Assembly: GCA_965140415.1 (NCBI GenBank)
Contig: OZ223209.1
Coordinates: 4,320,001 to 4,384,000, forward strand
DNA from: Myxococcota bacterium
Lineage (GTDB): Bacteria; Myxococcota_A; SURF-8
Direction: 5' to 3'
DNA: 64,000 bases
A program made the translations under genes and the position numbers. The notes under the pieces are model-generated. The model was not told the DNA's origin. It ran no database searches and saw nothing but the letters and a program-made list of their open reading frames with translations. This document shows, in pieces, positions 12,009 through 33,621 of the stretch; the stretch's first letter is position 1, and every line of letters begins with the position of its first letter.

Positions 12009-12044
12009 TCGCTTTCCCTTCCGTTTGCCAACATCCCCAAACGC

Positions 12045-12074
12045 GGAAACGGCGGGGACTCGCCCCGCCTTTCC
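12045..12074 (-). terminator. GC-rich hairpin, possible terminator or mRNA stability element
   Basis: GGAAA-C-GGCGGGG / CCCCGCC-TTTCC inverted repeat just downstream of the 12098-12607 ORF; weak U-tract. Confidence 0.45.
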
Positions 12075-12097
12075 ATTATTGATCCCTAAATTTCAGA

Positions 12098-13287: not shown

Positions 13288-13296
13288 TCCTTCCCC

Positions 13297-15060
13297 CTAC
13301 TTCACGCGCACGACGGCAAACGCCACATCCGCATCTTCTCCGGTGGTCGAGAAATACCGGTTGCTGTCACCCTTGGCAATCCAGCAGTTCAAGCCGGTAG
13401 AAGTCAACACACCATCGTTGTAATCGCTCAACTCTTCTGAGTAATCATTCGAGAAGCCCATGAACGTCACCGACTGACCTTCCGCAGTGGTGCGGCTGCA
13501 ATTCGTGCAGACGCCGATCTGCTGGCCGGTGATGGGATCGTCGTACAACTCATCATAGGCATATTTGGAACTGTCGGAAATGGACAGATCGTCCAAGCTG
13601 ACCGCCGCCATCCAGTTGAAAAACGCCTGATCCCAACTGATGTCCAAAGCCGCCTTCACCGCGTCGAAACCGGTGTCGGAAGTACGCACCAAGCTGGTTA
13701 AAAACGCCGCTCCGCCGTTGTCGGTCAGTGCGCCGCCGTCCGTACTCGAATAGCTCGCCCCGCCCTGCTGCTCGAAAAGATAGCGCATGAACAAAAATCC
13801 CATGCCGCGCGTTTCCACGCTGTCTTCGCTGAATGCCCAGGAGACCGCAGACGCATCGGATAAAAACGCGGCTGTCGTGGCGATATTGTCGATACCATAA
13901 CCACTCGCATCTTCCGCAAAGTGCGCCAGGTTTTCATCCAGCCAGACTTCTTCCGCCGCTCCGTACTTGCCACCCTTGATGCCGAACATCATCAGATGAT
14001 AATACTCGTGACCCACGGTTCCCAGAATCGACCCCAGATCGTCTGCGCTCTGCGGCAGTTGTATCCACAGAATATCCGCCGCATTGCCGGTCGCACCCGA
14101 AACGCCCGCATCCGCGAAGTCGGCGGGATTGAAGAATCCAGCCACCCCAGCATCGTTAACGAGATGGGTTGCGATCAGCAGATGTACACCATTCTGATCG
14201 GCGTCGGTCCAGTCGGTGCCATCGATAGTCGAAGACCCGAAGAAAAACTGATCGCGCGGATAAACCACACTGTCGAATTTTTCCACGATGCTCTGGATAT
14301 CGCTTTCACTGAAGGAAGCAGCGTCGTCTTCATCCACTGCCAACGCGACGTGTTCGCCTACCGCGCGCACCTGCACGTGGATGTCCTGGGTGGATTCGTT
14401 GAAATCCATAAAGGTCACGTCGAAATCGCTTTGACAACTGCCCTTCCATTCGACTTCGCCTGCACCGCAGTCAACCATCAGTCGCGCCCGTTTGGCTTGA
14501 CGCTTCAACAACTGCTCGCCGGTATAGCGTCCTTCCATCAACAGACGGCGTCCCCGTTCTCGCAAGCTTTTATCCGTTTGCTGCCGCGTCAGCAGGCGCT
14601 GATATCCGGCTTCGCTGATCCAGGCCGGTTTTGCCTGCTCAAATGCGCTGACCGGCTGCATCCTTACCCGCGAAAATAACGAGGAATCACCATCCTCAAA
14701 GCTATCTCCATCCGCCGTATCGCCATCGGCAATGTCGTCACCATCGACGCTGTCATCGCCATCGATTTGCGGCGCTTCACCTTCTTCAATGGTATAACCA
14801 GTCGAACTTTCCGTTTCCACCGGCCAGAACGGCAGAATGTGATATTCCTCCGTTCCTTCCGAAAAACCGAGTTCGAAACTATCCCCGGCATCGACCATGC
14901 GAACCACCGAATTGAGATCGCCGTCGGTCACGTCGCCATCGGTCTCGTCGTCCAGAACGTCACAGGCCAACAACATCGCAGTCAGTAACATCACAACCAA
15001 AATCAACGCTATTTTTTCCCTGAACATGGAATTTCTCCTTGTTAAGATGTCCATGCGCAC
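13297..15060 (-). CDS. Zinc metallopeptidase lipoprotein (HEXXH+E, M30-like)
   Basis: Lipobox LLAC, DGD repeats, AGFFNPAD, GHEYYHLM, and downstream WLDENLA carrying the likely third ligand Glu. Start may be ATG 15027. Confidence 0.8.
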   Translation of the reverse strand: MRMDILTRRNSMFREKIALILVVMLLTAMLLACDVLDDETDGDVTDGDLNSVVRMVDAGDSFELGFSEGTEEYHILPFWPVETESSTGYTIEEGEAPQIDGDDSVDGDDIADGDTADGDSFEDGDSSLFSRVRMQPVSAFEQAKPAWISEAGYQRLLTRQQTDKSLRERGRRLLMEGRYTGEQLLKRQAKRARLMVDCGAGEVEWKGSCQSDFDVTFMDFNESTQDIHVQVRAVGEHVALAVDEDDAASFSESDIQSIVEKFDSVVYPRDQFFFGSSTIDGTDWTDADQNGVHLLIATHLVNDAGVAGFFNPADFADAGVSGATGNAADILWIQLPQSADDLGSILGTVGHEYYHLMMFGIKGGKYGAAEEVWLDENLAHFAEDASGYGIDNIATTAAFLSDASAVSWAFSEDSVETRGMGFLFMRYLFEQQGGASYSSTDGGALTDNGGAAFLTSLVRTSDTGFDAVKAALDISWDQAFFNWMAAVSLDDLSISDSSKYAYDELYDDPITGQQIGVCTNCSRTTAEGQSVTFMGFSNDYSEELSDYNDGVLTSTGLNCWIAKGDSNRYFSTTGEDADVAFAVVRVK

Positions 15061-15175
15061 ATCGATTTCACCAGCCCCGTTCGGCTATCCTTACGCCACA
15101 ATCGTAACGCAGCCCCCAGAAATGTCAAGGTAAACTGAAAGGTGTACAATACGGTATTGGAAAACGATCGCCTTA

Positions 15176-17816: not shown

Positions 17817-17845
17817 TTGACGCCCCTGCTTTCTTCTGTTACACT
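17817..17845 (+). promoter_or_regulatory. Sigma70-type promoter for the ATPase gene/operon
   Basis: TTGACG-17 bp-TACACT with extended TG. It lies inside the 5' extension given by the ORF track, which supports ATG 17982 as the real start. Confidence 0.65.
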
Positions 17846-17981: not shown

Positions 17982-19841
17982 ATGGGGAAGCGTTGGACGG
18001 TCTTCGGACTGTTACTGGTGTCGATGTTGACCGGCTTCGCAGCGTTTTGCGCGGAAAGCAACATCCTGCCCAGCGACTCACAGATCACCGCTGAAGGGCT
18101 TGCAGAACAGGAACTGGACGCCCTGCGGTTGATGTACCATAAGGTTTCAAAGGAAGAACTCGACAGAAAACGCCAGATTCTTTCCGAAAAAGAACTGCAA
18201 CTCAATATCAAGCTCAATTCCAGCCGAGCTAAGAAAGAGCGCGCCTATCTGCTCGATTTGCAGCAGCAATTGTATAAAATCCATCAAGAAGTCGAACTGA
18301 TCGACGAGATCCGGGAAAATCCCTACGATCCGGTCTATCTGGTGCGCCATTATCAGGACTTTCTTGTGGTAGCGGCCATCGGTATCGGCGGATTGCTTTT
18401 CCTGTTAATCGCTTTTGCTCTTTTCAAGCATAGCCGCGAGATGAAACAACTCGGTCCGGTGGATCGCAGCCCCATGGAAAGCGAACCCAAGGGAGCAGGT
18501 CAGCGCGTGGTGCAAGGTTTCAACACCGAGCGCAAAAGCCAGATCGAAGTCAACGAAAGTATGCTTGGATTGGGATTGCCGGGCGGAGCGGTTCCCATCC
18601 CGTTGCAGGATTTACAATCACATATCGACAATTTCCTGATCGAAAACCCGAACGCCTACAACCAGTTGATGTACTTCATCTTCCGCCAGGCGATTCTCTG
18701 GCACGCCAGCGATATTCACATGCAACGCTCCGGTGGCTGGTTCGAAGTCAAATTCCGCTTGGACGGCTTACTGCATCCGACCTGCGTTTTGGATCTGCAT
18801 CGCGAACGGGAAATGATCAACATCGTCAAGATCATGAGCCGCATGAAAACCTTCGAGCATCGCGAAGCGCAGGAAGGTCGCCTGGACTTCCAGATGAGCG
18901 ACCATTGGTACGATTTCCGCGTGTCGGTGGTGCCGATCGTAGATACGGAGAAAATCGTCATCCGTATTTTCGGCGATGAAGACGTGCCCTTCAATCTCGA
19001 CCGCCTGGGGCTTTCCATCGACACCACGGAAAGAAGCAAGGAGATTCTACAACAGCGTTTCGGTCTGTTTCTGCTGGTCGGCCCGACCGGATCGGGAAAG
19101 ACCACCACGATGTACAGCTCGCTTCTGCATTTACAAAACGCCATTGGCGGCTTGAATATCGTCACGCTGGAAGATCCGGTGGAACACGTGTTCGAAGGCA
19201 TTACCCAGATTCAGATCAACCCGGTTAAAAACCTGAGTTTCGAAAGCGGTTTCCGCAACATCCTGCGGCAGGACCCGGAAGTCATCATGATCGGCGAGAT
19301 TCGCGATGGCGAAGCCACCAAGCTCGTTACGAGAGCCGCTCAAACCGGACATCTGGTTATCAGCACCGTGCACGCCGTCACAACACTTGGCGCGGTGGAT
19401 CGTATGCTGGATCTGGGAGCCGATCCTTATGCCTTGCACACCACGCTTTCGGCGGTGCTTTCCCAGCGACTCGTCAAACAGGTTTGCCTGCATTGCCGCA
19501 GCGCCTATCAACCCGATCCGGCTTATGTGGCCGAAGCCATGAAAATTCTAGGGAGCGGCGATATCGAATGGCAGCAGGGAAAAGGTTGCGAACACTGCCT
19601 GCAACGCGGTTATCGCGGGCGAATCGTATTAGACGAACTGCTGGCGATTCCGCTGCACGAACGTGAGCGGCTGGCGGGCATCGAAAATCGGGCCCAGCGC
19701 CAGGAAATCCTGCGACAGTACATCAATCACAGCCTCTATGAAGACGGCGTTCGCAAGGCCGCCGCAGGGTTGACGACGCTGGACGAAGTCGCCATGACCT
19801 TGGGCGATCTCAAGCAGATTCACCCCAGCATTCGTACGTGA
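17982..19841 (+). CDS. GspE/PilB-family secretion ATPase with N-terminal signal peptide, coiled-coil and TM helix
   Basis: ASDIH, FRLDG, Walker A GPTGSGKT, TLEDPVE, RQDPEVIMIGEIRD, TGHLVISTVH, Zn knuckles CLHC/CEHC, GLTTLDEV. N-terminus MGKRWTVFGLLLVSMLTGFAAFCA; TM FLVVAAIGIGGLLFLLIAFALF. Confidence 0.9.
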   Translation: MGKRWTVFGLLLVSMLTGFAAFCAESNILPSDSQITAEGLAEQELDALRLMYHKVSKEELDRKRQILSEKELQLNIKLNSSRAKKERAYLLDLQQQLYKIHQEVELIDEIRENPYDPVYLVRHYQDFLVVAAIGIGGLLFLLIAFALFKHSREMKQLGPVDRSPMESEPKGAGQRVVQGFNTERKSQIEVNESMLGLGLPGGAVPIPLQDLQSHIDNFLIENPNAYNQLMYFIFRQAILWHASDIHMQRSGGWFEVKFRLDGLLHPTCVLDLHREREMINIVKIMSRMKTFEHREAQEGRLDFQMSDHWYDFRVSVVPIVDTEKIVIRIFGDEDVPFNLDRLGLSIDTTERSKEILQQRFGLFLLVGPTGSGKTTTMYSSLLHLQNAIGGLNIVTLEDPVEHVFEGITQIQINPVKNLSFESGFRNILRQDPEVIMIGEIRDGEATKLVTRAAQTGHLVISTVHAVTTLGAVDRMLDLGADPYALHTTLSAVLSQRLVKQVCLHCRSAYQPDPAYVAEAMKILGSGDIEWQQGKGCEHCLQRGYRGRIVLDELLAIPLHERERLAGIENRAQRQEILRQYINHSLYEDGVRKAAAGLTTLDEVAMTLGDLKQIHPSIRT

Positions 19842-19908
19842 GCTCCGTTTTTTTTTTAAGCGACGAAGAAACTTGCGTTGGCACGGGAAACGTAGTTGAT
19901 GGCAATCA

Positions 19909-22900
19909 TTGGAGAACGGTTTGACCCGACCGAATAATAACCAATCGCCTTCCCCTCCAGAAAGGAACGAATCGGAACTTCCCGCAACAAGAGGTCGCAT
20001 AAAGCCCTTTAAAATACTATTGCGCATTGTAAAGATCTTTTTACTGACGACGCTTTTACTGGTCGCGCTGGTGTTGTTTACCGTGTTTTTCCTACCCTTG
20101 AACGTGCTCAAGGCGCCTGCACTAAGTTACATCAGAGAACACTATGGGGTTTCGATTCAGATCGCCGATATCGATTTTTCCCCGATCTCCGGCATCGAAA
20201 TCAACCGATTGCGCATCGATCCTCCTGAAGGATTCACGAAACCGCTTTTCAAAGTACAAAAAATCCGACTGTCCTATTCGCTGAATCACCTTTTCGATAA
20301 CGAATTTCAACTTTCGCAACTTCTGATCGACCGCCCGCACATCAACATTGAAACCATCGATGGCGTCATGAACGTGGTGGCGTTACAAAAGCAACTGGAA
20401 GCAAAACTGGAAAATTCCGCTTCAGAGGCTGATACGGAAATTGAAGTAGAAGAGGAGAAACAGGAGCCTTCCACTTTCCGGGTCAAACTCGCCAACATCG
20501 AAGTGCATCGTTTCAGCGCCTGGGCCGACACCGGTGATCAAAAAGTGAATTTCCAGGCTCTTTCGCTGCACGCCACCGGTCGTTACAGCGAGACCGACAG
20601 CCACCTGGACTGCGAAGTGTTCATCGACTCCGAGCCGGATTCCATTCAGCTTGCGCTTCTACAACAACAGCCGTTGCCATTTGAAACCAACTTGTTGATG
20701 GAATTGAAGGTGAAAGCCGTCATCGACAATTTCATTGAACCGCGTATCGCCTTGAATCTTACTGGTGGGATACAATCCAAGCTGATACAAACGGAATGGA
20801 AGCTTGAACCTGTGGATCTGCAATGGAGTTTGCGAGCCATTGCGGACTTGCAACAGCAACAGGCAACGCTATCCAAGTTCGCTCTGCGCTTCAATGAAAA
20901 CGACCTGTTAAACGTCAAGGCCACCTTGCAAGGCATACAAGAGCCTAAGAGTCTGGATCTACTACTTGATTATCTTACCCTACCGTTAGATGTGCTTAAT
21001 CCCTACATTCGTGCGTTTCAGCCGGATCTCGATGTCGGCGGGAAAGTGCGGGTTGAAAATCTTTCCGTACAAGGTGAAATTCCGAAGTTGCTGGCGCAGG
21101 GACTGCCTACCCTGAATGGCAAAGTGAAGCTCGAAAACATCCGGGCGACTTATCGACCGGCTCAGGCAAGCATTCATGGGCTGAATGCGGATTTCGATCT
21201 GAAAACCCGACCGGGTGACAATCACCAGGAAAAAGATGACCCGGCCCTGCTCGCAAGTGGAAACCTGACTCTTAATAAGGCAACCACCCCACAGGGCAGT
21301 TTAAACGACCTGAATTTGTCGCTCCATGCCCAGGCAGATGGTCTGGAGTTGACGGACGTACAAACCAAGCTCCTAGTTGCGATTCCTGAGGTTTTCGTGC
21401 AATCCCCGGAAATCGGCCAAGCACAGCTTTCATTTTCATTGGATACCGAGGCTGGCGGCAATCTCAAAACCGGACAATTTACACTGGAACACGCCGATAT
21501 CAACCTTGCAGACGTTCTCTCGCTTCATTGCAAGGCCCAGGCGGAGCTCGATCAGAATTTACAAGCAGTGCGTTCACATCGTTTCGAGCTTTCGGTCGAT
21601 CCCATCGATCTGCCAAAGGCGCTTCGATCCGTTCCCGCCGGAATCAAAAAGCAGATGCCGGAGCTTGAACTCGGCGGAAACCTGGCCATGACGCTGGAAA
21701 CCAGCGGGGCGATTCCGTTTGCAAACAACGATCCGATGCGCTGGCCGCTTAAAATGAAAAGCAGCGCGTCGCTTACTGCTGTCTGGGTGCGGATTCCGGA
21801 ACAGACTTTGTCCATCAGCGGCATCGGCAGCCAAGTTCTGATCGAAGGAAACCCGCGCGATCTTCGCATGGAGAGCGAGACAACACTTAAAAAGCTTGAG
21901 AAATCCGACATTCAATTTTCTCTGCATCAACTCGTAACACCGCTTTCTCTGCATCTGACACCGACAGAGGTGAAAGCAAAACTGGGCATCGACATCCAAT
22001 CCATGAACAAACTCGATCAGGCATTGGAATTGAAAGGCTTGCAGAGCGAAAACGACATCCAGCTTACCGGCGATTTCATGCGGGCTCTCATGCAGACAAT
22101 TCAGCTAAACTCCAACACCAAACTGAAGCGCCTGCGCTATGCCAAAGACACCGTCGTCTCGGTAGAGAATCAGTCCGTCTCGATGAACGCTTCATTCGAA
22201 CAGGCAACCCGCAACGGAAAAGCCCAGGTTCTTCTTTCCACCGGAAAGGTGGATTTGCCCGAACAGCAGATGGCGTTACAGGATTTCACAATCGACATTC
22301 AGACCGCTCTGGAAGGATTGTTACTCCCCACACAAGCGGATGCACAGCCAACGTGTGATGTCATCACCACCCAGGCCGGTATCAAAATCGGTGAACTCGA
22401 AAAGCGCGATTTATTCTTGAACCCCTTACTGAATACCTTTGCAGACTTCCATGCCGAAGTTCGCGATCTGAGCCACATCACACACACCGATATCAACGCG
22501 GGCGTGCCTTCCATCGGTCTAACCGCCGATATGAATGGCGAGATCCGCAACCTGAAAGACGCCAAAGGTGTATTTGTCGATTTCGGCGAGCACTGGCCCG
22601 AATTCGACATGGAACTGGCAGCGGAGCTTTCCGTTACGCAACGGAAGCAGCTATTGGAAGGATTATCACTGCAAGGTATGACCGGGATAAAAGCCAGGCT
22701 GCGTTCCCTACCGCAGGCAATGGCCCGTTTTGAAGGAAACCTGACAGGCAAGGATTTCTGTTTGTGGCTCAACCAAAAGGTGCAGCCACCAAAGAACAAA
22801 CCGGATGAGCCGGTCACGATTACCGATATTCAAGTACAACGCTTCAACGCGGACGTTCCCATCATCCAACTGATCGACATGCAACACCGCCGCCTTGTCA

Positions 22901-23700
22901 GCAAGCAAGGCGATATTTTCGAGGAAAAGTCTCGTGGAGTATTACACGACACCATGAGGCGCTATCTCAAACAACAATCGAATTTCCGCCTGGATAGCTT
23001 GCTTTACCGCAAGTCCGCTGGCTCTTCGACTCAGCAATTTCGTATCGACGAAATCAACCTGGATATGCTCTACAGCGATAACACCTTCGCCATCGACCGT
23101 ATGTACGTGGACATTCTGGGCGGCGGTATCACAGGCGCGTTGCAAGTGCAGTTGACTGGTCTGCCGCCCGCTCCGTTCGATGCCCGTATCCACTTCGAAA
23201 ACCAGATCACGGGCGTCAACCTGAAACGCCTGACCGAACGCGACCCGAAGAAAATCACCGCCGATACCGAACTTTCCATGCTCACCGATTTGAATGTCGA
23301 TCTTGGCGGTCGCCGCATCGATGGCCGCGTGGACTTGACCAAGCTTTCGCTGAAACAGTTGGATGAACTGTTCAAATTCCTGGACCCCTCCGGCCAGGAT
23401 CCGTCCATACAAAACAATCGGAATCTCATCAACGCCTGGTACGTCAACATGCTCAACCCGCGTATCAAGCTGGTTTCACTGTGGATGACCTACGGCAATT
23501 TGAATATGGATATCGAAATGAATGCGTTGGTGTTCGAGAATCTTTTGCAACAAAACCTGGACGCCAACCGCATTCGTCGCTACGACGTGATGCCATTGAT
23601 CCGGGACTTCGTCCCGATGTGGCGCGACAAACCGGAGCAGACCACCGCTTTGACCACAGATCAGAGCACAGTTAAAAGCAATCGGTCCGCAAATCCGTAG
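19909..23700 (+). CDS. AsmA-like (YdbH/TamB-type) large envelope protein
   Basis: 1263 aa. Single N-terminal TM after a basic patch; AsmA-like start (IQIADIDFSPISGIEI...LLIDRPHINIE); beta-strand-rich throughout; ILGGGITG near the C-terminus; followed by a YdbL-like gene. Confidence 0.75.
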   Translation: MENGLTRPNNNQSPSPPERNESELPATRGRIKPFKILLRIVKIFLLTTLLLVALVLFTVFFLPLNVLKAPALSYIREHYGVSIQIADIDFSPISGIEINRLRIDPPEGFTKPLFKVQKIRLSYSLNHLFDNEFQLSQLLIDRPHINIETIDGVMNVVALQKQLEAKLENSASEADTEIEVEEEKQEPSTFRVKLANIEVHRFSAWADTGDQKVNFQALSLHATGRYSETDSHLDCEVFIDSEPDSIQLALLQQQPLPFETNLLMELKVKAVIDNFIEPRIALNLTGGIQSKLIQTEWKLEPVDLQWSLRAIADLQQQQATLSKFALRFNENDLLNVKATLQGIQEPKSLDLLLDYLTLPLDVLNPYIRAFQPDLDVGGKVRVENLSVQGEIPKLLAQGLPTLNGKVKLENIRATYRPAQASIHGLNADFDLKTRPGDNHQEKDDPALLASGNLTLNKATTPQGSLNDLNLSLHAQADGLELTDVQTKLLVAIPEVFVQSPEIGQAQLSFSLDTEAGGNLKTGQFTLEHADINLADVLSLHCKAQAELDQNLQAVRSHRFELSVDPIDLPKALRSVPAGIKKQMPELELGGNLAMTLETSGAIPFANNDPMRWPLKMKSSASLTAVWVRIPEQTLSISGIGSQVLIEGNPRDLRMESETTLKKLEKSDIQFSLHQLVTPLSLHLTPTEVKAKLGIDIQSMNKLDQALELKGLQSENDIQLTGDFMRALMQTIQLNSNTKLKRLRYAKDTVVSVENQSVSMNASFEQATRNGKAQVLLSTGKVDLPEQQMALQDFTIDIQTALEGLLLPTQADAQPTCDVITTQAGIKIGELEKRDLFLNPLLNTFADFHAEVRDLSHITHTDINAGVPSIGLTADMNGEIRNLKDAKGVFVDFGEHWPEFDMELAAELSVTQRKQLLEGLSLQGMTGIKARLRSLPQAMARFEGNLTGKDFCLWLNQKVQPPKNKPDEPVTITDIQVQRFNADVPIIQLIDMQHRRLVSKQGDIFEEKSRGVLHDTMRRYLKQQSNFRLDSLLYRKSAGSSTQQFRIDEINLDMLYSDNTFAIDRMYVDILGGGITGALQVQLTGLPPAPFDARIHFENQITGVNLKRLTERDPKKITADTELSMLTDLNVDLGGRRIDGRVDLTKLSLKQLDELFKFLDPSGQDPSIQNNRNLINAWYVNMLNPRIKLVSLWMTYGNLNMDIEMNALVFENLLQQNLDANRIRRYDVMPLIRDFVPMWRDKPEQTTALTTDQSTVKSNRSANP

Positions 23701-23742
23701 TGCGATCCGCCTTCCCGGCGGTTGAAATGAGGGAGAGAAAAG

Positions 23743-24315
23743 ATGGTTCGCATCAAAGCATGTTTCCTACTTGTTGCTATTCTGGCGTTCTGGTTGCCGC
23801 AGAGCGGCTGCGTACGGATGAAACTTGTGTCCGTCGATGAGAAGACCCAGTTGGAAAACCAGATTTTAGGCTCGTTCGAGCAGTTGCAGCAGGATCTCGT
23901 TTTAGTCGCATCAGTGCGTGACGAGAATGGGAAAACACCCGAAATACCGGAAGCCAAACGAGAAGCGCTGGTTGCCATGATGAATCGCCAGTTCAACCTG
24001 GATGATGTCAACCAGTTGAAACGGGACAACGTCGCCGGAGAAAACAACAAGGGTCTTTTAACGTTTTTCGCAACCGATAGAACCCGGGCCAATGCAGAGT
24101 ATCTCGCTTTTGCCAAGCGCATTATAAAAGAGGAAAACAGGGATCGCTTTGTGATCATGCAACGCCTGATCTCCACCACTCCATCTTTAACCAAGGCAGA
24201 TCTTCCCCTAATACGACAGATTTTCTATACCTTGAACGAGGCTGGCAGCGCACCGGGAACCCGTATCCAAACTCCCGATGGCGAATGGACCGTTAAAGCG
24301 GACATGGCGGAATAA
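23743..24315 (+). CDS. YdbL/DUF1318-like lipoprotein
   Basis: Lipobox-like QSGC; AGENNKGLL, IIKEENRDR and C-terminal APGTRIQTPDGEWTVK, typical of YdbL-like proteins. Confidence 0.8.
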   Translation: MVRIKACFLLVAILAFWLPQSGCVRMKLVSVDEKTQLENQILGSFEQLQQDLVLVASVRDENGKTPEIPEAKREALVAMMNRQFNLDDVNQLKRDNVAGENNKGLLTFFATDRTRANAEYLAFAKRIIKEENRDRFVIMQRLISTTPSLTKADLPLIRQIFYTLNEAGSAPGTRIQTPDGEWTVKADMAE

Positions 24316-24317
24316 CC

Positions 24318-27300
24318 ATGCTGAATCTTCGCCATCCATCCTTCTTGCTACGATGCATTTTCCCTATGCTGGCGGCACTAATGCTGTTGCAGCTATGCGG
24401 CTGTGCAACCGTCAAAGGCTGGCTTGCCGAACCGACGGTTTTAAAAAGCTTCACGGTGCAACCCGTCGACCAGCAGATGGGGCGCCCCACCGAACTAACC
24501 TCCTTTTCCAGTGACGAATTGTATGGCAGCCTGTCGCCCAATGGACGTTACCTGCTCTATTCCAGTAACCAGAAAGGCAGCCAGGACATCTGGTTGATGG
24601 ATCTGACCAGTGGACTGCCACGCCGCTTGACCGACCACAAGGCCACAGACACCATGCCCGCCTTCTCTCCCGATGGCGAACGCATTGTGTTTATCAGTAA
24701 ACGCGATGATGTAAAAGGCGATGTGTACCTGTTGGATCTGGACGACGATACGCCAAAGCGCTTGACAGATCGCGAGACAGCGGAACAGTCTCCCGTTTTC
24801 GCACCGGATGGAAAGCACCTTTACTTCGCCTCCGGCGCACCGGAACAAACGCGCATCGTCCGCTACCGTCTTTCCGATAGGTTTATCGAACCGCTTACCG
24901 AAACAAAGGCAACGCATCCTGCCATCAGCCCTGACGGTCGTTGGCTGGCCTACATTCGCTTAGGCGAAGACAAAATGAACCGGCTGTATCTGATGCAGCT
25001 ATCCGATCGCAAAGTGAAAAAGGTCTCTTTCTACAGCTACCAGGCCGGGTTTCCCTCTTTCTCTCCCGATTCGAAAGAACTGTATTTCGTTCGTTTCTAC
25101 TACGCTCCACCGCGTGCAACGCTTAATGGTGATGAAAATGGCGTAATCTGGCGGGTACCGGTTACCCATGCCTGGAAGAAAACCGGCGTTGCGCTGGAAC
25201 GTGGCATGGTACAGATTACATCCGGTCGTCAAACGCATCTGTTCGTTCAGGCACACAACTCCGGCCTGCTTTATACGACGCGCCGAAACGGGAACCTCGA
25301 TGTGTGGATGGAACCGTTGGATGGACTGCTGCCCTCTTTCGATTCTCCGCGCAAGCAGTTGGATTTCGCGTTGGAGCAGGAAAATTACTACGACCAGCTG
25401 TTTGCGCTTCGAGGTTTGCGTTCCTTTAAAAGCGGGGCGGAGCTACAGGAAGCCTTTTATCTGACATCCGAATTTTATCGGCGCAACGACTGGTTCCGTA
25501 AACAACGATCCAATCTGACGACACTTGATAAAATGCCCAAACCTTACGGAAATTGGCAAGGACTGGCACGTGTGGATCTAGCCGTTTGGGATGTAGAACA
25601 GACGGTTGGCAACGAGATTTCTACTGGTATTCGACTTAAACCGGAGCAGGTGGAAAAGGCGGAAACGCAGTTGGAAAAACTGCTTGTCAAGTATAACGAT
25701 GTTCCCACCGTTTCCGCTTATGCGACATTGCGCCTGGCCGACATTCAATCCATCAGTGGTAATTCTCTTTCGGCCATTGCTTCCTACCGCAGTGTTCTTC
25801 AGCAGTTTCCAGAGCAGCGCGAAAGAGGCATTCAAGCACGATTGGCTCTGGGAAAACTATTGGCCCAATTGCAGGAAACCGATGCATTGGTGGCTTATTA
25901 CCTTGATCTACTTCGCGAATATCGCGATTTCGACCGCTGGCGACGTCATGCCATCGAGATCATTCTTGCAGAACTCAAACGAAGCACCACACAACGATTT
26001 GCTCAAAGTGAAACAGCATCGAATCCATCTTCTATGGAAGTATTGCAAAAACAACGTGATCTCGCCCTTGTGGATCACCTGCGTAGCCTGATCGATGCCA
26101 ATCCCGATCTTCCACTTCTGGGTGCAATACTGCAACTACAGATCGGTCGTATCTATGAACGACTTGGCTTGCGCTCGCTGGCCTTGCAAGCGATGCAGCT
26201 TGTTGCCAAACGCTATCCCAAACAACACAAAGAAGCGACGCTTGCCACCTTCGCCCTTGGAGAGTTATCTCAACAGATCGCCGCAGAATTGCGCGAACAG
26301 GGGCGTTTTAACGAAGCTGGCGCCTACTACTCAGATGCACTCGACTACTACGAGAAGATCAGTCGCTTGTATCCACCAAACCATGAATACAGCCTGCGCG
26401 CTCGTCGCGAGTTTCTGTCGCTGTCGTTATCCAAAGCAGGCCAGCAACGTCGTAACGGGGATATCGAAGCCTCGAAAGCCGCTTACACGCGCATTCTCAA
26501 GTTCGACAACCACATCCTCCCCGCGCATCGCGCGTTGATCGATTTCGGCGTAGCGCAAGGGAATGCGGAACAACTTCGCAGCCAATACAAGCAGTTACTA
26601 AGAACCGATCCCGCCGATTTCGTTGGACACTATGCACTCGGTTATCTGGCGACCTTGCGCTCCGATCTTTTATTATCAGATCTGGATGACGCGGAAAAAC
26701 ATCTGAACAAAGCGTTGGGGTTGAACGCCGTCAATCCTTACATTTACCTCACCCTGGGCTGGATTGCAGAAATGCGCGAACTGGCTTTTGGCGACATCGT
26801 CTCCGGCTGGTTGGAAACGGCGATTGGACGATATCAACAAGCGTATCTATTAAACGATCGCAAACAGGATCTGGAAGCGGAAGCCTTTATTCTATTGAAT
26901 CTCGGCAATGGATTTTCCCGCCTTGGCAACACCTGGAATTACGCCTACGACTATTACAGTCAACGGCTGGCACTGAATCTGCCATTCCTAAAACCTACTC
27001 GAGAAGCGCTTTTTTATCTTAATTTCGGTCGCGCAGCGTTTCATGTCGAGCAGTACGACGAATCCACCCGCTATTTCGAACACGCGCTACAGTTGGTGCA
27101 AACCCTGGATCTGCCGCAATTCAAGGCCGAACTTGTGGCACGTTTGGCGCTTAACTACCAATTGCAAGGAAGTTATAAAACCAGTACGCAATACTTCTTG
27201 CGCTCGATTGAAACGCTTGAAGCACTTGGTCAATTCAATAAACTTGCTGCCCTCACGCGGTCGGTCGCACTGAATGAATACTACCAGGGTAACCGTGAAG

Positions 27301-30300
27301 CAGCCATGCAAAGGCTTCAGCAAAGTCTTTCCTATCTACACGAATACGGTACGCCATCCGTTGGAAAGTTCAGCCGCCTGGCACTGCATCCAGGCAAATC
27401 GCTTGCGCCTTTCGGTTTCAACCGTCGCCATGAAGAAGAAGTTTCTCGCTCTCTGCAAGCGATGATCTTCGCCGAGTTGCAGCAATTCGAATGCAGTGCG
27501 AAGGCGTTGCGAGAAAAGGCGGAACTGATGGACAGTCTGCTCGCCTCGCTCGAAACGCCGGAAGACGAGCAACTGCGCGAACGCGGCATTGTTTATGCTC
27601 AACAGGGATCGGCAGCCTGGAAAGCTGGATATGGACAGCAAGCCGTGCGCTTCTTCTCCCAATCCTTTCAGAGCATGGAGCGCATTGGAGCCTCGGCTGT
27701 TTCTGAGACTGATCCAACCCTTGTTAAAGCCAGGCAACTTGGCTTGGAGAACGATCTTTATATTGAAACGTCCAACACCTCACTACTAGCCGGATTCGAT
27801 GTCGTTCATTTTTCCGAGCAAATCACAAGCGCCTGCGCTGCGGCTGAAGTTGTCGCCAAGCAGTTGAACCAAAACGTCGTTGTGGAACCGGGAACGATTA
27901 TCGAGGTCACTTCCCGCCTGCAACGCTTGACTTCCAGGCTGCTGCTGAACTCTCAACCCGACTCCCCCCCTCCCATTGCTCTACCTCTGGTTTGGCGCTT
28001 AAGCAGCGACCTTGCGGCCTTATCCATGGCCTATGCGCATTCTGAAGAAATAGTTTTAGCGCAGCAGCAAAGTAAAGACACAGCCATCCTGCAAGGTCTG
28101 CGGTCCATCGAACGCTACACGCAGGGCATTTCCCTGTATAAGCGCCTCATCGCCTGGACGGCTCCTACTCAAGAAGAAGATACAATACCGGTAGCGCAGC
28201 ACACTCTTTCTCCTTATCTTTTAGCGCGCATACACGTTACGGCCTTGACTAATCTTGCCGAATTGGCGGCCATGCTGGAAGGTCCGGAAAGACGCGCAGA
28301 AGAAGACAGCTACTCTAGTCGATATCTGAATCAGGCGCTTCAAATCTGCTCGCAGCAACAGCTTAAGGACGTCTGCTGGCTGGGGCGTATGTTACAGGCA
28401 AAATGGAACGGAGACTCCGAACAGGCTTTTAGCACGTTGGAAGAATACGGCAAAGACGGTCCCGTTCTATTGGGTAAATTGTACTTGGAACGCGCGGATG
28501 AAGTCCGCCACCGTCTGTTTAATACTGCGCGTTCTTTCGCACTACAGGAAAAAGACTGGCACAGCTTGTGGACGCTTTCAGAACGCGAAAACCGCCGGAT
28601 GATCGTCGATGAAATGGCCAAACTCGGTTTCGATGTGGACTCTTTGGAACTTAAATCGGTGGTATCCAGTTTGCAGGCAACGGTTGCTGCTTATCGACAG
28701 GAGGTAGAGAGCCAATCTCTAGAGGATGACGAAAAGACACGCGCTCAACACGAACAGCAACTCGCGAAACTCCGGGAAAACGTCGCCAAGCATATGATCG
28801 AGTTGCAGAAAAAGGCACCAAGACTGCATCGCCTTCTGGTGGTGGAACCCTTCGACATTCTTTCGGTACAGCAGGCGCTACGACCCGGACAAACGCTTGT
28901 CACGATTCTTCCTCTCGATACCGGACTTACCTTACTGGCGCTTGACCAACAGAATCTTCGCGGCGAGCAGCTACCGCTTTTCCTGCCACAATTCAATAAA
29001 GATCTACAATCCTGGATCGAGCGTCCCGAAACCCCACCGGAGTCTCTGCAACATCTTGCCGAAAAGATACTGTCATTGGTTGGAGGTTCCGACTTGGTCT
29101 ACCTCGATGCCGACCGGCTGGGGGTGGATCTTCCGTTTGCCTCCCTGCTGTCATCAATGGGCAAAACTAATCTCCGCCTGCTGCGCGTCAGCAGCGCCTG
29201 GGGACTTCTGGAATCCTACCAAAACCGCAAGCTTGCACAGAATAAAGGCATCGCCACTCTTTCCAACCAATATTCCGGCGATGCAAAACAGGAACCTGCG
29301 CCTCTTGTTGCATCATTCAATCGACTGAACTACAATAACTCCTGGCAACGTATTTCCGGCGACGACTTGACCCTGCAACAGGCCATGCCGGAGTTGCAAC
29401 GCACCCAGATACTCGCACTGATGCAACCTGCTGTGTTTGAGGGTGGCTCGGCTGCGAACCTGTGGCTTCTCTTCAATACGCCAACACCGGGTATTGGACA
29501 CTACAGCTTCATTCATCATCTCGACGCCCGCTTCAACGCCCAGCTTGTGCTGTTCTTCGATCTGCGCCACTCCGGCCAAGCTCGCAAGGAACGTTTGTTT
29601 CTGGAAACCATATTAAACGCGGTCGGCGTTCCTTCTTTCCTGGTCGCTACCGACTCAACCAAACCGGATACCATCGTGCGCTTTTTCGATGCGACATTAC
29701 CAAACTGGGCGAGTGATTCCCGCGATCAAGTATATTGGAAAGCCATGGGGCAATTTGATCGAACTACACCCGACGACATCCAACTGTACGGCTATGCCGG
29801 TATGAATGAAGACGATACACGCTCCTACGCCAAAAACAATCTGGCCGCCACCATCCGTGATGCCGTTGCCTACCAGACGCGCGGGGCGGCTCGCACTGCC
29901 GTTGAAACCTACGAGCAGGCGCTGGCGATCATGGATTACCTTCAAGATTACACGTTTCTGGACAAGTTATTGCAACAACTTGTGACGCAGTGTAACGACA
30001 TACAAGACTGGTCCCGTCTGATACATTACCAGTCGCGTATTCTTGAAAGAGCGCAAAAAGCCTACGACGCCGATCCCAAGCAAGTGGTTCCATATCTCAA
30101 TGCCAAGAAATCATTAGCCGATGCTTACACAAAGGCAAAGCTTTATGATGAGGCATTGCTTCAGAACCAGGATATCCTGGATGTTCTGTTGCAGGCAAAA
30201 CGGCTCTCGCTTTGCGGTCCCTATTACGAGCAACGCGGATTCATTCTGGAATTCGCTAGGCGCTATGAAGAAGCTTTAACGGCCTACCGCCAGGCTTACG

Positions 30301-32822
30301 ACATCTATACAAAATCCAACAACCGTAAGGGCATACTCGCGCAGAGCAATCACATGGCACGTATTCTGCGGTTGCGCCTTAGTCGCTACAGCGAAGCGAA
30401 GCCCTACATCGAACGCGCCCTGAAACTGTCTACCGACTCCGAACCCTCCGATCGCTTGGGTTTACAGATGGAGTTGGCCAATTTGCAGCGTTTTACGGGT
30501 AACTATGCCAGCGCCGAAAGCATTGCACGCGAAGTCATTCGGGAATGTACGCAGTTGATCGCAAAAACCATGGAACAGGCTCGCGGCGTGGCGGCAAATA
30601 GCAGCCTTTCTACCGAAGACCGACGCTCCAGGTTAATGAACCTGAGAACAACGAAGCTTCGACTTGAGAAACTGCGTCGCGATGGCTACCTGGAAACCGT
30701 CAATTCCCTGTGGCGACAGGGTGGCTATGCCGAGGCACTGCGTATGCAACAGTTGGGAATGCAACTGGCGGAATCGGAACGGGACACCGCCAATCGCATC
30801 ATGCTCACCAATGCCAAAGGATTGATTTTCGCCAGTCTGGGCGATACCGATAACGCAATTGAAACCTTTAACCAAACACTGTCTTTGACCCAGCGTATCG
30901 GAAACTTTAGCGAACAAGCCACTGCCTACAACAATCTTGGCGACACCTATCGCCGCGCCGGTAAATTCGAAGCTGCCAAACGTTCTTTCCTGCAAGCCTT
31001 GGAAATCGACCGTCGTCAGAACTTCAAAACCGGGCTATCCTACGATTACGCCAACCTGGGCATCACTTACGAGCAAATGCAACGCAATGACGACGCCATC
31101 GAAACCCTGAACCAAACCTTGAAATTATCCCGGGAAATCCGGGAACCCATCAACGAGCTTAAGGCGTTGCTTTCATTGGGCCGCTTGTATCTCCGCCTGG
31201 ACAATCGCCCGTTAGCCAAGCAGGTGCTCCAGACCGGCCTGGAGAAATCCCAATCCTTGAATCTGGCAGACTGGAACTGGCGCTTCGACTATCACCTGGG
31301 ACGTCTTGCCGAATTAAGCGGTGATGCAAAAGCCGCCTTGACACGTTATCAACAGGGATTGCAACACACCGAATCCTTGCCTCCCATTCCGCGAACGAAC
31401 CAGCGTACGATAAAATTGGAGGAGCAACGTTGGGATCTTTACGATGCCGCGCTGGATCTGCTGGCGCGCCAACAGCGCGCGTCGGAAAGCTTTCATCTGG
31501 CCGAACGCTTTCGCGCTCGTAAATTTCTCGATCTGTTAGGCTCGGATTCCACGATTCTGCCTCAGACCCGAGCAAGCGAAATTCTGCATGAACTCGCACA
31601 AAATCGGCTGTTAGTAAAAGAATCCCAAGAAACGCTTCGTCATGCCAGCGATGAAGAACGTCCTGTCGCCACAACGCAGCACGAGCAACACCTACAGCAA
31701 CGCGATCAACTCTTGAACGAACTCGCCAAGCTGAATCCGGAATATCCTTCTTATGTGGAAGTGGACGCTCGTCCTTATGAGGAGCTGAAATCCTTCATTC
31801 CCGAAGATACCGCCGTTCTCGTTTATTATCACACGCCCGCACATCTGCTCATCTGGACCGCAACGACAGAGCAGCTTAGCTTGCAGGCAATCTCTCAACC
31901 ACGCGAAGAAACGACGGCGCTTATCCGGGCTTATCGCGAACGGATTGACGGTTTTCATCCCACCGACGATCTCGACCGGCTCTTGTACCAGTTGCTATTG
32001 CAACCGGTGCAGACGCAATGGGAGGCCAAACCGCACCTGCTTCTGGTGCCATTTGAAGAGATGCATTCCCTGCCCTTCTCCGCCTTCGGTATGAAGGATC
32101 AGCCGTTGCTCGACCAGCGCGCGGTGCAGTATCTTTCAAGCGTGAATCAGCTACGTTTCGTAAAACCGCAAGAAAAATGGGAGGACATCCGGGAAAAAGG
32201 GCTGGCTTTCGGCTATGACAGCAAAGAGGACTCCACGCCGCTACCTTTCATTCATCAGGAACTATCCGCATTTTCATACACCTTCCCGCAGGCGACGACG
32301 CGCACAGGTGAACTAGCCACGGAAACAAGCTTCAAACATCTTGCGCCAACGGCATCCTGGTTGCATCTCGCCGCCCACACGACACTGGACCCGGTGCATC
32401 CGTTGAACTCCGCCATACAGCTTGCGGATGGCAAGGGTGAAGATGGCAAGGTACAGATAAAGGAAGTGTTGCAGCTCGGCTTGAAAAGCGAGTTGACCGT
32501 GCTTTCCGCCTGTAATACGGCCAATGGAGATACTGGTTCGGGAGATGAAATCATTGGGCTTAACCGGGCTTTTCTGACTGCCGGCTCCAAGCAGGTGCTC
32601 GCCAGCTTGTGGCGCGTATCCGATTTAACCACTGCCATTTTAATGAAACACTTTTTCCGGCAGTTGAAACACGCACCACCGGCAGTTGCATTACAGCAAG
32701 CGCAGCAGATCGTCCGTAAGCTGTATCCGCATCCCGCCTACTGGGCGGGCTTCCGTCTCGAAGGCGCACCCACTGCCGAAGAGCAAACCGGCAAAACAGA
32801 ACAATCGGCAAACAATCCGTGA
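24318..32822 (+). CDS. Giant lipoprotein: TolB-like PD40 propeller + TPR arrays + degenerate CHAT + C-terminal CHAT (caspase-like) protease
   Basis: Lipobox LCGC. PD40 repeats SPNGRYL, PAFSPDGERI, PAISPDGRWL, PSFSPDSKEL. Many TPRs (ATAYNNLGDTYRRAGKFEAAKRSFLQALEI). CHAT motifs LHLAAH, VLSACNT, GDEIIGLNRAFLTAG, SLWRVSD, HPAYWAGF. Confidence 0.9.
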   Translation: MLNLRHPSFLLRCIFPMLAALMLLQLCGCATVKGWLAEPTVLKSFTVQPVDQQMGRPTELTSFSSDELYGSLSPNGRYLLYSSNQKGSQDIWLMDLTSGLPRRLTDHKATDTMPAFSPDGERIVFISKRDDVKGDVYLLDLDDDTPKRLTDRETAEQSPVFAPDGKHLYFASGAPEQTRIVRYRLSDRFIEPLTETKATHPAISPDGRWLAYIRLGEDKMNRLYLMQLSDRKVKKVSFYSYQAGFPSFSPDSKELYFVRFYYAPPRATLNGDENGVIWRVPVTHAWKKTGVALERGMVQITSGRQTHLFVQAHNSGLLYTTRRNGNLDVWMEPLDGLLPSFDSPRKQLDFALEQENYYDQLFALRGLRSFKSGAELQEAFYLTSEFYRRNDWFRKQRSNLTTLDKMPKPYGNWQGLARVDLAVWDVEQTVGNEISTGIRLKPEQVEKAETQLEKLLVKYNDVPTVSAYATLRLADIQSISGNSLSAIASYRSVLQQFPEQRERGIQARLALGKLLAQLQETDALVAYYLDLLREYRDFDRWRRHAIEIILAELKRSTTQRFAQSETASNPSSMEVLQKQRDLALVDHLRSLIDANPDLPLLGAILQLQIGRIYERLGLRSLALQAMQLVAKRYPKQHKEATLATFALGELSQQIAAELREQGRFNEAGAYYSDALDYYEKISRLYPPNHEYSLRARREFLSLSLSKAGQQRRNGDIEASKAAYTRILKFDNHILPAHRALIDFGVAQGNAEQLRSQYKQLLRTDPADFVGHYALGYLATLRSDLLLSDLDDAEKHLNKALGLNAVNPYIYLTLGWIAEMRELAFGDIVSGWLETAIGRYQQAYLLNDRKQDLEAEAFILLNLGNGFSRLGNTWNYAYDYYSQRLALNLPFLKPTREALFYLNFGRAAFHVEQYDESTRYFEHALQLVQTLDLPQFKAELVARLALNYQLQGSYKTSTQYFLRSIETLEALGQFNKLAALTRSVALNEYYQGNREAAMQRLQQSLSYLHEYGTPSVGKFSRLALHPGKSLAPFGFNRRHEEEVSRSLQAMIFAELQQFECSAKALREKAELMDSLLASLETPEDEQLRERGIVYAQQGSAAWKAGYGQQAVRFFSQSFQSMERIGASAVSETDPTLVKARQLGLENDLYIETSNTSLLAGFDVVHFSEQITSACAAAEVVAKQLNQNVVVEPGTIIEVTSRLQRLTSRLLLNSQPDSPPPIALPLVWRLSSDLAALSMAYAHSEEIVLAQQQSKDTAILQGLRSIERYTQGISLYKRLIAWTAPTQEEDTIPVAQHTLSPYLLARIHVTALTNLAELAAMLEGPERRAEEDSYSSRYLNQALQICSQQQLKDVCWLGRMLQAKWNGDSEQAFSTLEEYGKDGPVLLGKLYLERADEVRHRLFNTARSFALQEKDWHSLWTLSERENRRMIVDEMAKLGFDVDSLELKSVVSSLQATVAAYRQEVESQSLEDDEKTRAQHEQQLAKLRENVAKHMIELQKKAPRLHRLLVVEPFDILSVQQALRPGQTLVTILPLDTGLTLLALDQQNLRGEQLPLFLPQFNKDLQSWIERPETPPESLQHLAEKILSLVGGSDLVYLDADRLGVDLPFASLLSSMGKTNLRLLRVSSAWGLLESYQNRKLAQNKGIATLSNQYSGDAKQEPAPLVASFNRLNYNNSWQRISGDDLTLQQAMPELQRTQILALMQPAVFEGGSAANLWLLFNTPTPGIGHYSFIHHLDARFNAQLVLFFDLRHSGQARKERLFLETILNAVGVPSFLVATDSTKPDTIVRFFDATLPNWASDSRDQVYWKAMGQFDRTTPDDIQLYGYAGMNEDDTRSYAKNNLAATIRDAVAYQTRGAARTAVETYEQALAIMDYLQDYTFLDKLLQQLVTQCNDIQDWSRLIHYQSRILERAQKAYDADPKQVVPYLNAKKSLADAYTKAKLYDEALLQNQDILDVLLQAKRLSLCGPYYEQRGFILEFARRYEEALTAYRQAYDIYTKSNNRKGILAQSNHMARILRLRLSRYSEAKPYIERALKLSTDSEPSDRLGLQMELANLQRFTGNYASAESIAREVIRECTQLIAKTMEQARGVAANSSLSTEDRRSRLMNLRTTKLRLEKLRRDGYLETVNSLWRQGGYAEALRMQQLGMQLAESERDTANRIMLTNAKGLIFASLGDTDNAIETFNQTLSLTQRIGNFSEQATAYNNLGDTYRRAGKFEAAKRSFLQALEIDRRQNFKTGLSYDYANLGITYEQMQRNDDAIETLNQTLKLSREIREPINELKALLSLGRLYLRLDNRPLAKQVLQTGLEKSQSLNLADWNWRFDYHLGRLAELSGDAKAALTRYQQGLQHTESLPPIPRTNQRTIKLEEQRWDLYDAALDLLARQQRASESFHLAERFRARKFLDLLGSDSTILPQTRASEILHELAQNRLLVKESQETLRHASDEERPVATTQHEQHLQQRDQLLNELAKLNPEYPSYVEVDARPYEELKSFIPEDTAVLVYYHTPAHLLIWTATTEQLSLQAISQPREETTALIRAYRERIDGFHPTDDLDRLLYQLLLQPVQTQWEAKPHLLLVPFEEMHSLPFSAFGMKDQPLLDQRAVQYLSSVNQLRFVKPQEKWEDIREKGLAFGYDSKEDSTPLPFIHQELSAFSYTFPQATTRTGELATETSFKHLAPTASWLHLAAHTTLDPVHPLNSAIQLADGKGEDGKVQIKEVLQLGLKSELTVLSACNTANGDTGSGDEIIGLNRAFLTAGSKQVLASLWRVSDLTTAILMKHFFRQLKHAPPAVALQQAQQIVRKLYPHPAYWAGFRLEGAPTAEEQTGKTEQSANNP

Positions 32823-32913: not shown

Positions 32914-33621
32914 ATGGAAAGAATGGAAACGAAAACGGATCACGTACAACTCGGGATGGAAGCGTATCGTCAGGGTGATTTCAAACGCGCCTTGCATCAT
33001 TTCAATGAAGTCATGCAACAAAGCGATCAATACGCCGACATCTACAACCTGATGGGCGTGATTCACCAGCGCAGCGGTAACCTGTTAGCCGCGCGCCCAG
33101 CTTTCGAACAAGCGTTGAAAATCAATCCCGATTTCGAAGAGGCGCGTTTCAACCTGCTGATCTGCCTGAACGAATTAGGCGAGAACAGCCACCCCGATGT
33201 CGCTCCCGATAAATTCAACGATGCGCCGGAACCAGGTGAGTTATCCAAAAGCGTCAAAGGTCGGCTGGCCAACATGCATCGCGATATCGGCCAGGTCTAC
33301 CTGGACTTCGGACATTTTCAGCAGGCCGAGCAGCAATTCGTGGAGGCGTTGCATCTGCGTCCCAGTTTCCACGACATCCGCCTGACTTACGGCAATAGCC
33401 TGCGCGTGCAAAACAAGTTGGAACAAGCCATCGAACAGTACGAACTCATTTTAAAACAAAAACCGGATTATCATCTGGCGCGTACGTTTTTGGGGCTGTG
33501 CCATTTTCTGCAAGGCCAAAAGGAAGAAGCAGAGCGCTGCTGGCAACAGGTACTCGAAGCAGACCCAGAGCAAAAGCTCGCCATTACTTACATGTCCAAC
33601 CTGAAAGCAGATCGCGTCTGA
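32914..33621 (+). CDS. Tetratricopeptide-repeat protein
   Basis: About 5-6 TPRs and no signal peptide. Start reassigned to ATG 32914 or 32923 because the ORF-track start lies inside the CHAT gene. Confidence 0.85.
   Translation: MERMETKTDHVQLGMEAYRQGDFKRALHHFNEVMQQSDQYADIYNLMGVIHQRSGNLLAARPAFEQALKINPDFEEARFNLLICLNELGENSHPDVAPDKFNDAPEPGELSKSVKGRLANMHRDIGQVYLDFGHFQQAEQQFVEALHLRPSFHDIRLTYGNSLRVQNKLEQAIEQYELILKQKPDYHLARTFLGLCHFLQGQKEEAERCWQQVLEADPEQKLAITYMSNLKADRV

Follow-up and report, generated by a model that had tools for sequence, protein, structure and literature searches.

A conserved trio of AsmA-like, YdbL-like and PD40-TPR genes in Myxococcota and other phyla, joined in one order by a membrane-anchored GspE-type ATPase

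Whether four tightly packed genes encode a single envelope machine, and which of the four belong to it, is the question raised by positions 17982–32822 of a 64,000-nucleotide stretch of a Myxococcota bacterium genome (assembly GCA_965140415.1, contig OZ223209.1, positions 4,320,001 to 4,384,000 of the forward strand; hereafter the window, whose numbering is used throughout unless stated otherwise). The host genome is a single contig of 5.98 Mb. The cluster encodes a GspE/PilB-type ATPase, an AsmA-like protein, a YdbL-like lipoprotein and a giant lipoprotein carrying a CHAT caspase-like protease domain, and an initial annotation, made from the DNA alone, had proposed that these form one four-gene system. 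The open reading frames (ORFs) at 17982-19841, 19909-23700, 23743-24315 and 24318-32822 are all co-oriented on the + strand and separated by gaps of 67, 42 and 2 bp, exactly as had been read at the outset. The four genes, and the parts of the fourth, are as follows (aa, amino acids).

17982..19841, + strand: GspE/PilB-type ATPase, 619 aa from the ATG; T2SSE PF00437, E 1.8e-96, 323 bits
19909..23700, + strand: AsmA-like protein, 1263 aa; ~35-aa cytoplasmic tail, one transmembrane helix (~aa 36-62), all-beta periplasmic rod
23743..24315, + strand: YdbL-like lipoprotein, 190 aa; lipobox Cys23, conserved helix aa 31-57, YdbL-fold domain aa 70-185
24318..32822, + strand: giant lipoprotein, 2834 aa; lipobox Cys29
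24465..25337, + strand: PD40 (TolB-type) beta-propeller of the giant, ~aa 50-340; PF07676, E 2.1e-28
25338..27677, + strand: helical/TPR region, ~aa 341-1120, with TPR_14 at aa 736-776; together with the propeller, the part common to the short homologues
28848..29795, + strand: degenerate CHAT-like domain, ~aa 1511-1826, lacking the His/Cys dyad; from hhalign
30669..31370, + strand: canonical TPR array, ~aa 2118-2351; TPR_12, TPR_1, TPR_2 and others
31977..32765, + strand: CHAT caspase-like protease domain, aa 2554-2816; PF12770, E 1.3e-56
32376-32378, + strand: predicted catalytic His2687
32511-32513, + strand: predicted catalytic Cys2732

The conserved unit is three genes, not four. When 41 related genomes were queried with the AsmA-like protein, 12 gave a match, and 10 loci were fetched around the matches. 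Five of these contain all four genes in the same order (at L019 the ATPase is in two pieces, and at L015 the contig stops within the giant); the remaining five comprise two trios without the ATPase, one AsmA-like gene with the lipoprotein only, one AsmA-like gene only and one locus with no match. A pattern search for the lipoprotein yielded 64 loci, which were scanned with hidden Markov models (HMMs) over six-frame translations, some of the models having been built from these same loci. An AsmA-like gene lies upstream in 23 and a PD40-TPR gene downstream in 22, with both present in 21 loci from Myxococcota, Nitrospira and Sumerlaeota; of the two loci with the AsmA-like gene alone, L075 is explained by a contig end and L078 is a real exception. 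Because the other models were partly built from the loci tested, an HMM trained on the Myxococcota AsmA-like proteins alone served as an independent test, and it matched all 7 Nitrospira upstream ORFs (E 1e-33 to 3e-25) and one from Sumerlaeota (E 6e-11), with no match among the Nitrospinota upstream ORFs. The AsmA-like proteins share 14-40% identity across loci, with conserved gene order and near-zero spacing in three phyla, and this recurrence places the adjacency far beyond chance. The neighbourhood search across diderm phyla suggested by the initial annotation thus recovered synteny of the AsmA-like, DUF1318 and PD40-TPR genes in Myxococcota, Nitrospira and Sumerlaeota. The lipoprotein profile is found in 59 of 401 sampled Myxococcota genomes (16 strong matches, 43 weaker but full length) and in 11 of 201 Nitrospirota genomes, where just 3 of the matches are full length.

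Twelve further Myxococcota loci all encode an AsmA-like protein, the lipoprotein and a PD40-TPR protein in that order. The CHAT giant occurs in 2 of the 12, and the other 10 have a CHAT-less PD40-TPR protein of ~1150-1260 aa. Aligned to the giant, these short forms cover aa ~35-1117; they have no CHAT, as judged by Pfam on five of them. Since 10 of the 12 loci encode a third gene without CHAT, the protease half is an add-on, and the invariant third partner is the propeller-TPR module. A search for short forms by a narrow alignment gave 10 loci, all in uncultured Myxococcota-type metagenome-assembled genomes except one titled Gammaproteobacteria, with none in a model organism. At a Sumerlaeia locus an M48 peptidase gene (L077:4619-5509) directly precedes the AsmA-like gene.

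The AsmA-like protein is matched by AsmA PF05170 at aa 37-199 only, about 160 N-terminal amino acids, with 43.8 bits compared with a cut-off of 29.8, and its cytoplasmic tail aligns in the orthologue at L014. An AlphaFold2 model of aa 64-1263, made from a 22-row alignment, has a predicted local distance difference test (pLDDT) value of 82.9 and displays ~60 long strands running end to end over model aa 20-1163. Based on this model we propose that the rod would be of TamB/YhdP size, anchored in the inner membrane and long enough to cross the periplasm. Neighbours in the ESM Atlas fall in AsmA/DUF748/YhdP clusters and are taken as leads only. The complete rod model is too long for the structure-search tools, with Foldseek returning the LPD-3 complex (9cap) at a probability of 0.96 but a TM-score of 0.16, and VIA-align giving the ApoB100 beta-belt as its best match (Z 16.9), then barrels, porins and LptD also being returned. 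The C-terminal 299 aa of the rod have no Pfam match even at E ≤ 10. At the other end, the N-terminus weakly matches GspN of type II secretion (29.2 bits compared with a cut-off of 50); GspN is an AsmA-like protein. Elsewhere in the host's own genome (C1:725360-732014), a TamB-family gene lies ~4.5 kb from another T2SSE-family ATPase gene without a transmembrane anchor, which may be a second AsmA-superfamily/ATPase neighbourhood.

The lipobox cysteine of the YdbL-like protein, Cys23, is invariant in 8 of 8 orthologues. The DUF1318 family (PF07027) scores 20.7 bits in the window protein, below the cut-off of 27, and 31.7 bits in an orthologue. The AlphaFold2 model (63 rows, pLDDT 83) consists of the long helix at aa 31-57 and the compact domain at aa 70-185, and the sole outstanding match of this domain in Foldseek was the crystal structure of Escherichia coli YdbL, 28oj (TMt 0.85, root mean square deviation 2.0, 96 columns). 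The link to YdbL comes from the fold search alone, the lipoprotein profile finding nothing below E 0.07 among PDB sequences. Searched against 5.8 billion proteins, the profile gave 294 clusters at E ≤ 1e-5; among the 120 relatives listed of these 294 clusters, 103 carry PF07027, and several are named YdbL or DUF1318 by their sources. The protein is the genome's only DUF1318-type match. Together with the PF05170 match, these results bear out the identities originally given to the second and third genes. No match to YnbE was found among the four proteins (Pfam, E ≤ 0.01) or in the N-terminal 67 aa of the lipoprotein (E ≤ 10), and the 42- and 2-bp gaps leave no room for a YnbE gene such as the YdbH-YnbE-YdbL system has. 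Long open frames (895-1510 aa) that seemed to contain the lipoprotein as a fusion were rejected as overlapping stop-free frames in DNA of 63-76% GC. At L066, the sole Nitrospinota-type locus scanned, the lipoprotein gene lies between a beta-ketoacyl synthase gene and an ORF of ~482 aa of no known family, and ORFs of similar size flank the lipoprotein in many other Nitrospinota-type loci (L028-L066 and others).

The giant begins with a TolB-type propeller rather than a full-length TolB, as TIGR02800 (TolB) scores 122 bits compared with a cut-off of 343 and covers the propeller part only. A weak YbgF-like match follows at aa 443-503. In the C-terminal CHAT domain, the histidine and the cysteine are kept in the window protein and in 13 of 13 orthologues aligned (one wrong-frame row excluded), and the giant is the genome's only CHAT gene. 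The region at aa ~1511-1826 aligns by hhalign to the profile of the C-terminal CHAT domain with a probability of 82.8 and E 9.3e-6 over 302 columns, compared with 0.1 for four control regions. This region has no Pfam match, and a plain HMM for an internal CHAT repeat was not significant (iE 0.69); it is solely through the profile-profile comparison with its controls that the second CHAT-like domain is called. Since the region aligns to the CHAT profile and yet lacks conservation at the dyad positions, the giant is predicted to carry one dead and one live caspase-like domain. A PDB sequence search with the last 734 aa of the giant returned only TPR proteins and no CHAT structure (DdvA, Csx29). 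Among Myxococcota, all nine long forms examined are lipoproteins, and plain signal peptides are present in four Nitrospira proteins, one from Sumerlaeota and the six short forms in which the N-terminus was read; four further rows, taken from tblastn matches, begin at the propeller with the N-terminus unread. The lipobox, the strong CHAT match and the conserved dyad agree with the initial description of an exported caspase-like protein.

The ATPase contains a complete GspE/PilB core, preceded by a short basic N-terminus, a transmembrane helix (aa 6-24), a coiled-coil-like loop of ~100 aa, a second transmembrane helix (aa 127-145) and a linker. The positive-inside pattern suggests that the loop is periplasmic and the core cytoplasmic. 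The core has GPTGSGKT at 367, LEDPVE at 396, IGEIRD at 437, STVHA at 461 and CLHC/CEHC at 502/536, which we take to be the Walker A motif, the acidic boxes, the His box and the CxxC pairs, respectively. The zinc-binding CxxC pairs and the full set of nucleotide motifs are as in GspE and PilB. Unlike those proteins, the ATPase has two transmembrane helices and a periplasmic coiled coil in place of the N1 domain, and it scores below both equivalog cut-offs (341 compared with 630 for TIGR02533, GspE; 300 compared with 675.65 for TIGR02538, PilB). The anchored architecture is common to four ATPase orthologues, and among the nine T2SSE-family genes examined in the genome only this one has N-terminal transmembrane helices. 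The other T2SSE-family gene in the window encodes PilT (8000-9178, - strand). Unlike type II secretion and type IV pilus clusters, no platform, pilin or secretin gene lies near the ATPase; every match in the genome to PF00482 (GspF/PilC), PF00263 (secretin) and PF07963 (prepilin-type) is outside positions 4320001-4384000, in line with what had been read from the window. Judged by its motifs and distribution, the anchored ATPase is a lineage-specific addition with intact catalytic motifs.

At the orthologue level (E ≤ 1e-85), 7 of the 401 Myxococcota genomes have the ATPase. Each of these seven also has the trio, and all are among the 16 genomes with a strong lipoprotein match; because these genomes are close kin, the co-occurrence of 7 in 7 is weak statistics. 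The gene adjoins the trio in five genomes, with spacings to the AsmA-like gene of -4, 17, 67 and 102 nt and one uncertain start. It is unlinked to the trio in G008, where its neighbours have N-termini that resemble those of rpoB and rpoC; in G012 it is on a different contig from the trio and has one stop codon, and in an eighth genome, G009, an adjacent copy has four stop codons beside an intact trio. No match at the orthologue level was found in G003, G005 and G007 (79-95% complete) or in five genomes from outside the order that have the trio (Nitrospira, Sumerlaeia and other Myxococcota); the highest-scoring match in these five had 259 bits at 33-39% identity. With orthologues that are few, in part unlinked or broken, and missing from trio genomes elsewhere, the ATPase is a real neighbour in one order, probably co-transcribed there, and not a general part of the module. 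The four-gene system of the initial annotation is therefore retained as a conserved, tightly packed trio with a narrow addition, and the co-occurrence of ATPase and trio that it had asked about did not extend beyond the order.

Transcription signals within the cluster were compared with shuffled sequence. The features are:

17817..17845, + strand: sigma-70-like promoter candidate, TTGACG, 17 nt, TACACT, with TG before the -10; 9 of 12 positions matched
19848..19857, + strand: T10 tract after the ATPase stop codon, not recognisable as an intrinsic terminator

The region contains 7 promoter-like sites, fewer than the 10.7 ± 3.5 in shuffles. The site that had been described as one good sigma70 promoter does exist, but since such sites are no commoner than in shuffles it is in itself no evidence of transcription from this point. 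The ATPase frame is open already from a TTG at 17772. A break in transcription at the T10 tract, raised earlier as a way in which the ATPase would drop out of the system, is not indicated, and the tract was rejected as a terminator: the upstream hairpin has -12.5 kcal/mol compared with -13.0 ± 2.7 kcal/mol in shuffles, and the terminator scan made no call.

Among known systems, the closest in gene content is found in E. coli, where, according to two reports, YdbH, YnbE and YdbL are encoded together, the AsmA-like YdbH is anchored and is capped, through strand addition, by the lipoprotein YnbE, whose C-terminal helix is in turn bound by YdbL, which controls YnbE stacking (PMC11126948; bioRxiv 10.64898/2026.03.16.712125). 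The likeness consists in an inner membrane-anchored AsmA-like beta-groove protein encoded beside a YdbL-fold protein in a tight operon. Unlike the E. coli system, the trio has no YnbE, its YdbL-like protein is itself lipidated and has an extra conserved strand-plus-helix N-terminus, and its third gene encodes a PD40-TPR scaffold, with or without CHAT, to which nothing in E. coli corresponds. At 1263 aa, the rod is longer than YdbH, which has 879 aa. With TamB the rod shares its size and the N-terminal anchor; unlike the TamB-TamA pair, it gives no match to the C-terminal TamB family of Pfam, and the cluster has no gene for an Omp85 partner. To our knowledge, the only outer membrane partners of AsmA-like proteins are TamA for TamB and YnbE/YdbL for YdbH.

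For the giant, the nearest relative in kind is DdvA of Myxococcus xanthus, which is reported to be a transmembrane anti-sigma factor of ~1000 aa that has a single transmembrane helix and, in the cytoplasm, a zinc anti-sigma domain, and that regulates a defence island; it is the one characterised periplasmic TPR-CHAT protein (PMC11506125). The two are alike in having a periplasmic TPR-CHAT architecture with a canonical His-Cys dyad in Myxococcota; the giant differs from DdvA in being a lipoprotein of 2834 aa, in its propeller and additional dead CHAT-like domain, in lacking an anti-sigma domain, and in having AsmA-like and YdbL-like neighbours. A TPR solenoid that gates a caspase-like domain is also a feature of Csx29 (Craspase) and separase, and the pair of dead and live protease-like domains calls separase to mind. 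Unlike the giant, Csx29 and separase are cytoplasmic, and the locus has no CRISPR context. The order of a PD40 propeller followed by TPRs in the periplasm resembles TolB-Pal/CpoB (YbgF); unlike that system, the locus has no TolQRA or Pal genes. In agreement with the initial annotation, a literature search on the composition (AsmA-like, DUF1318, CHAT, TolB, lipoprotein, GspE, Myxococcus) found no description of it, the supplementary tables of the YdbH/YdbL and DdvA papers lying outside the search.

We infer that the module is a variant of the AsmA-like bridge systems. Specifically, the trio may encode an intermembrane bridge that is related to YdbH-YnbE-YdbL of E. coli but has a new partner, a tentative reading by analogy whose probability we put close to, though a little short of, even. 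In such a bridge, the inner membrane-anchored AsmA-like beta-rod would carry lipid between the membranes, and the tethered YdbL-like protein, together with the propeller-TPR scaffold, would stand in for YnbE in organising its distal end, an arrangement that presupposes contacts among all three proteins and a membrane of residence for each. In the long forms, CHAT would provide a regulated proteolytic output, its possible substrates including bridge parts in need of turnover or envelope proteins held by the TPRs. In most genomes the module would work without the ATPase. A complex prediction with the C-terminal 341 aa of the AsmA-like protein, the mature lipoprotein and the propeller of the giant scored 0.00, giving no answer, and was used neither way.

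Several observations weigh against a lipid bridge of this kind. The fold searches with the 1200-aa rod model, which is too long for the tools, listed no solved AsmA-like structure, and in Pfam the YdbH-specific and TamB C-terminal families were unmatched by the rod. As YnbE caps YdbH in E. coli, its absence means that the analogy may fail at the key contact. The genome has two TamB-family genes elsewhere, the 1263-aa protein being its only AsmA-type match, so that this AsmA-like paralogue need not carry bulk lipid. At L078 (G007, Myxococcota) the 3.1 kb that follow the AsmA-like and lipoprotein genes contain no PD40-TPR gene, and no ATPase orthologue was found in this genome; in 40 of the 64 lipoprotein loci, of Nitrospinota type, there is neither an AsmA-like nor a PD40-TPR gene within 10 kb.

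Other explanations of the same genes have to be weighed against the bridge. The AsmA-like protein and the lipoprotein could together be a TamB-like assembly or export aid, the giant being their product and not a part of the machine. A role in assembling large envelope proteins has been attributed to TamB-type proteins, the gene for the giant invariably comes next after the pair, its product is invariably exported, and in one lineage the ATPase could supply the energy. However, the cluster has no Omp85/TamA partner gene, the short forms are of ordinary size, soluble and periplasmic in type and have plain signal peptides, and Pfam finds no barrel, autotransporter or surface-sorting feature in the giant, which makes this explanation unlikely. 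It is more doubtful still that the TPR-CHAT part detects phage, competitors, damage or some other cue in the periplasm and responds by cleaving proteins, much as the DdvA TPR-CHAT or the cytoplasmic Craspase does, with the rod as a scaffold only. The conserved dyad and the dead-plus-live domain pair, which suggests regulated activation, would fit such an envelope sensor or defence device, as would the tie of DdvA, the characterised periplasmic TPR-CHAT protein, to phage defence (PMC11506125). Yet 10 of the 12 additional trio loci from Myxococcota have no CHAT, the gene is present as a single copy and is kept in different phyla, and its neighbours are housekeeping genes with no defence island. 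Besides a marginal mad8 match on the P-loop region of the ATPase (E 6.7e-4), PADLOC gave only a generic TPR match for the cluster (E 5.6e-15), the Csx29 model reached 41.8 bits compared with a cut-off of 300, and no sigma or anti-sigma domain was found.

A machine of all four parts, in which an anchored GspE-type hexamer drives transport through the AsmA-like rod, is a poor prospect in view of where the ATPase occurs. It would agree with the adjacent and co-oriented ATPase genes in five genomes of two families (spacing -4 to 102 nt), with the intact catalytic motifs and conserved anchor, and with the weak GspN resemblance of the rod N-terminus; the restriction of the orthologues to genomes with a strong lipoprotein match (7 of 7) concerns close kin and lends no independent support. 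Against it, orthologues are absent from 394 of the 401 Myxococcota genomes compared with a lipoprotein family present in 59, none was found in the five trio genomes outside the order, and within the order the copies in G008, G009 and G012 are unlinked, interrupted or on another contig while the G009 trio is intact. Restricted to this Myxococcota order, the related proposal that the rod has gained a motor of its own has a similarly slim chance; in it the hexamer, having exchanged its platform-binding N1 domain for the two membrane helices and the periplasmic coiled coil, would couple ATP hydrolysis to the movement of lipid or protein along the rod, with the protease at the far end. That the genes are unrelated neighbours, together by chance or through shared envelope regulation only, is scarcely credible, as their order is kept with near-zero spacing in three phyla at an AsmA-like identity of 14-40%. 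The intermembrane bridge with a propeller-TPR partner is thus the reading we tentatively prefer.

If the bridge reading is true, the tethered YdbL-like protein and the TolB-like propeller/TPR scaffold would constitute a third, widely conserved partner set for AsmA-like proteins. As the long forms carry a built-in caspase-like protease, proteolytic control of a lipid bridge becomes testable, and exported CHAT proteases would be placed in a physiological context outside defence. Coupling of the ATPase, were it real, would bear on what drives flux through AsmA-like bridges; with a true motor, an AsmA-like transporter would for the first time have an energy source assigned to it, and the secretion-ATPase fold would be seen in a new role.

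The genes on either side of the cluster were considered as well. Downstream, a TPR gene (~32914-33621) and an M14 carboxypeptidase gene (33649-36375) were rejected as cluster members, as they show no synteny in relatives. The M14 zinc carboxypeptidase (33649-36375, + strand) ends in a cysteine, a hydrophobic stretch and an Arg-rich tail, which we presume to resemble a Myxococcota C-terminal sorting signal. Upstream on the - strand, 11244-17581 contains five consecutive exported or lipoprotein ORFs (254, 169, 227, 587 and 801 aa) without a Pfam or NCBIfam family; the 587- and 801-aa ORFs have acidic DGD-type repeats, and the 587-aa ORF is the divergent neighbour of the ATPase gene in two relatives. 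The PilT/PilU-family gene at 8000-9178 (- strand; TIGR01420, 456.6 bits) stands within a housekeeping string of cinA, recA, pilT, recX and alaS. Further downstream, 37561-39888 (+ strand) encodes a 775-aa protein with a Dickkopf-like cysteine-rich N-terminus (E 8e-5) and a Laminin_G_3 domain.

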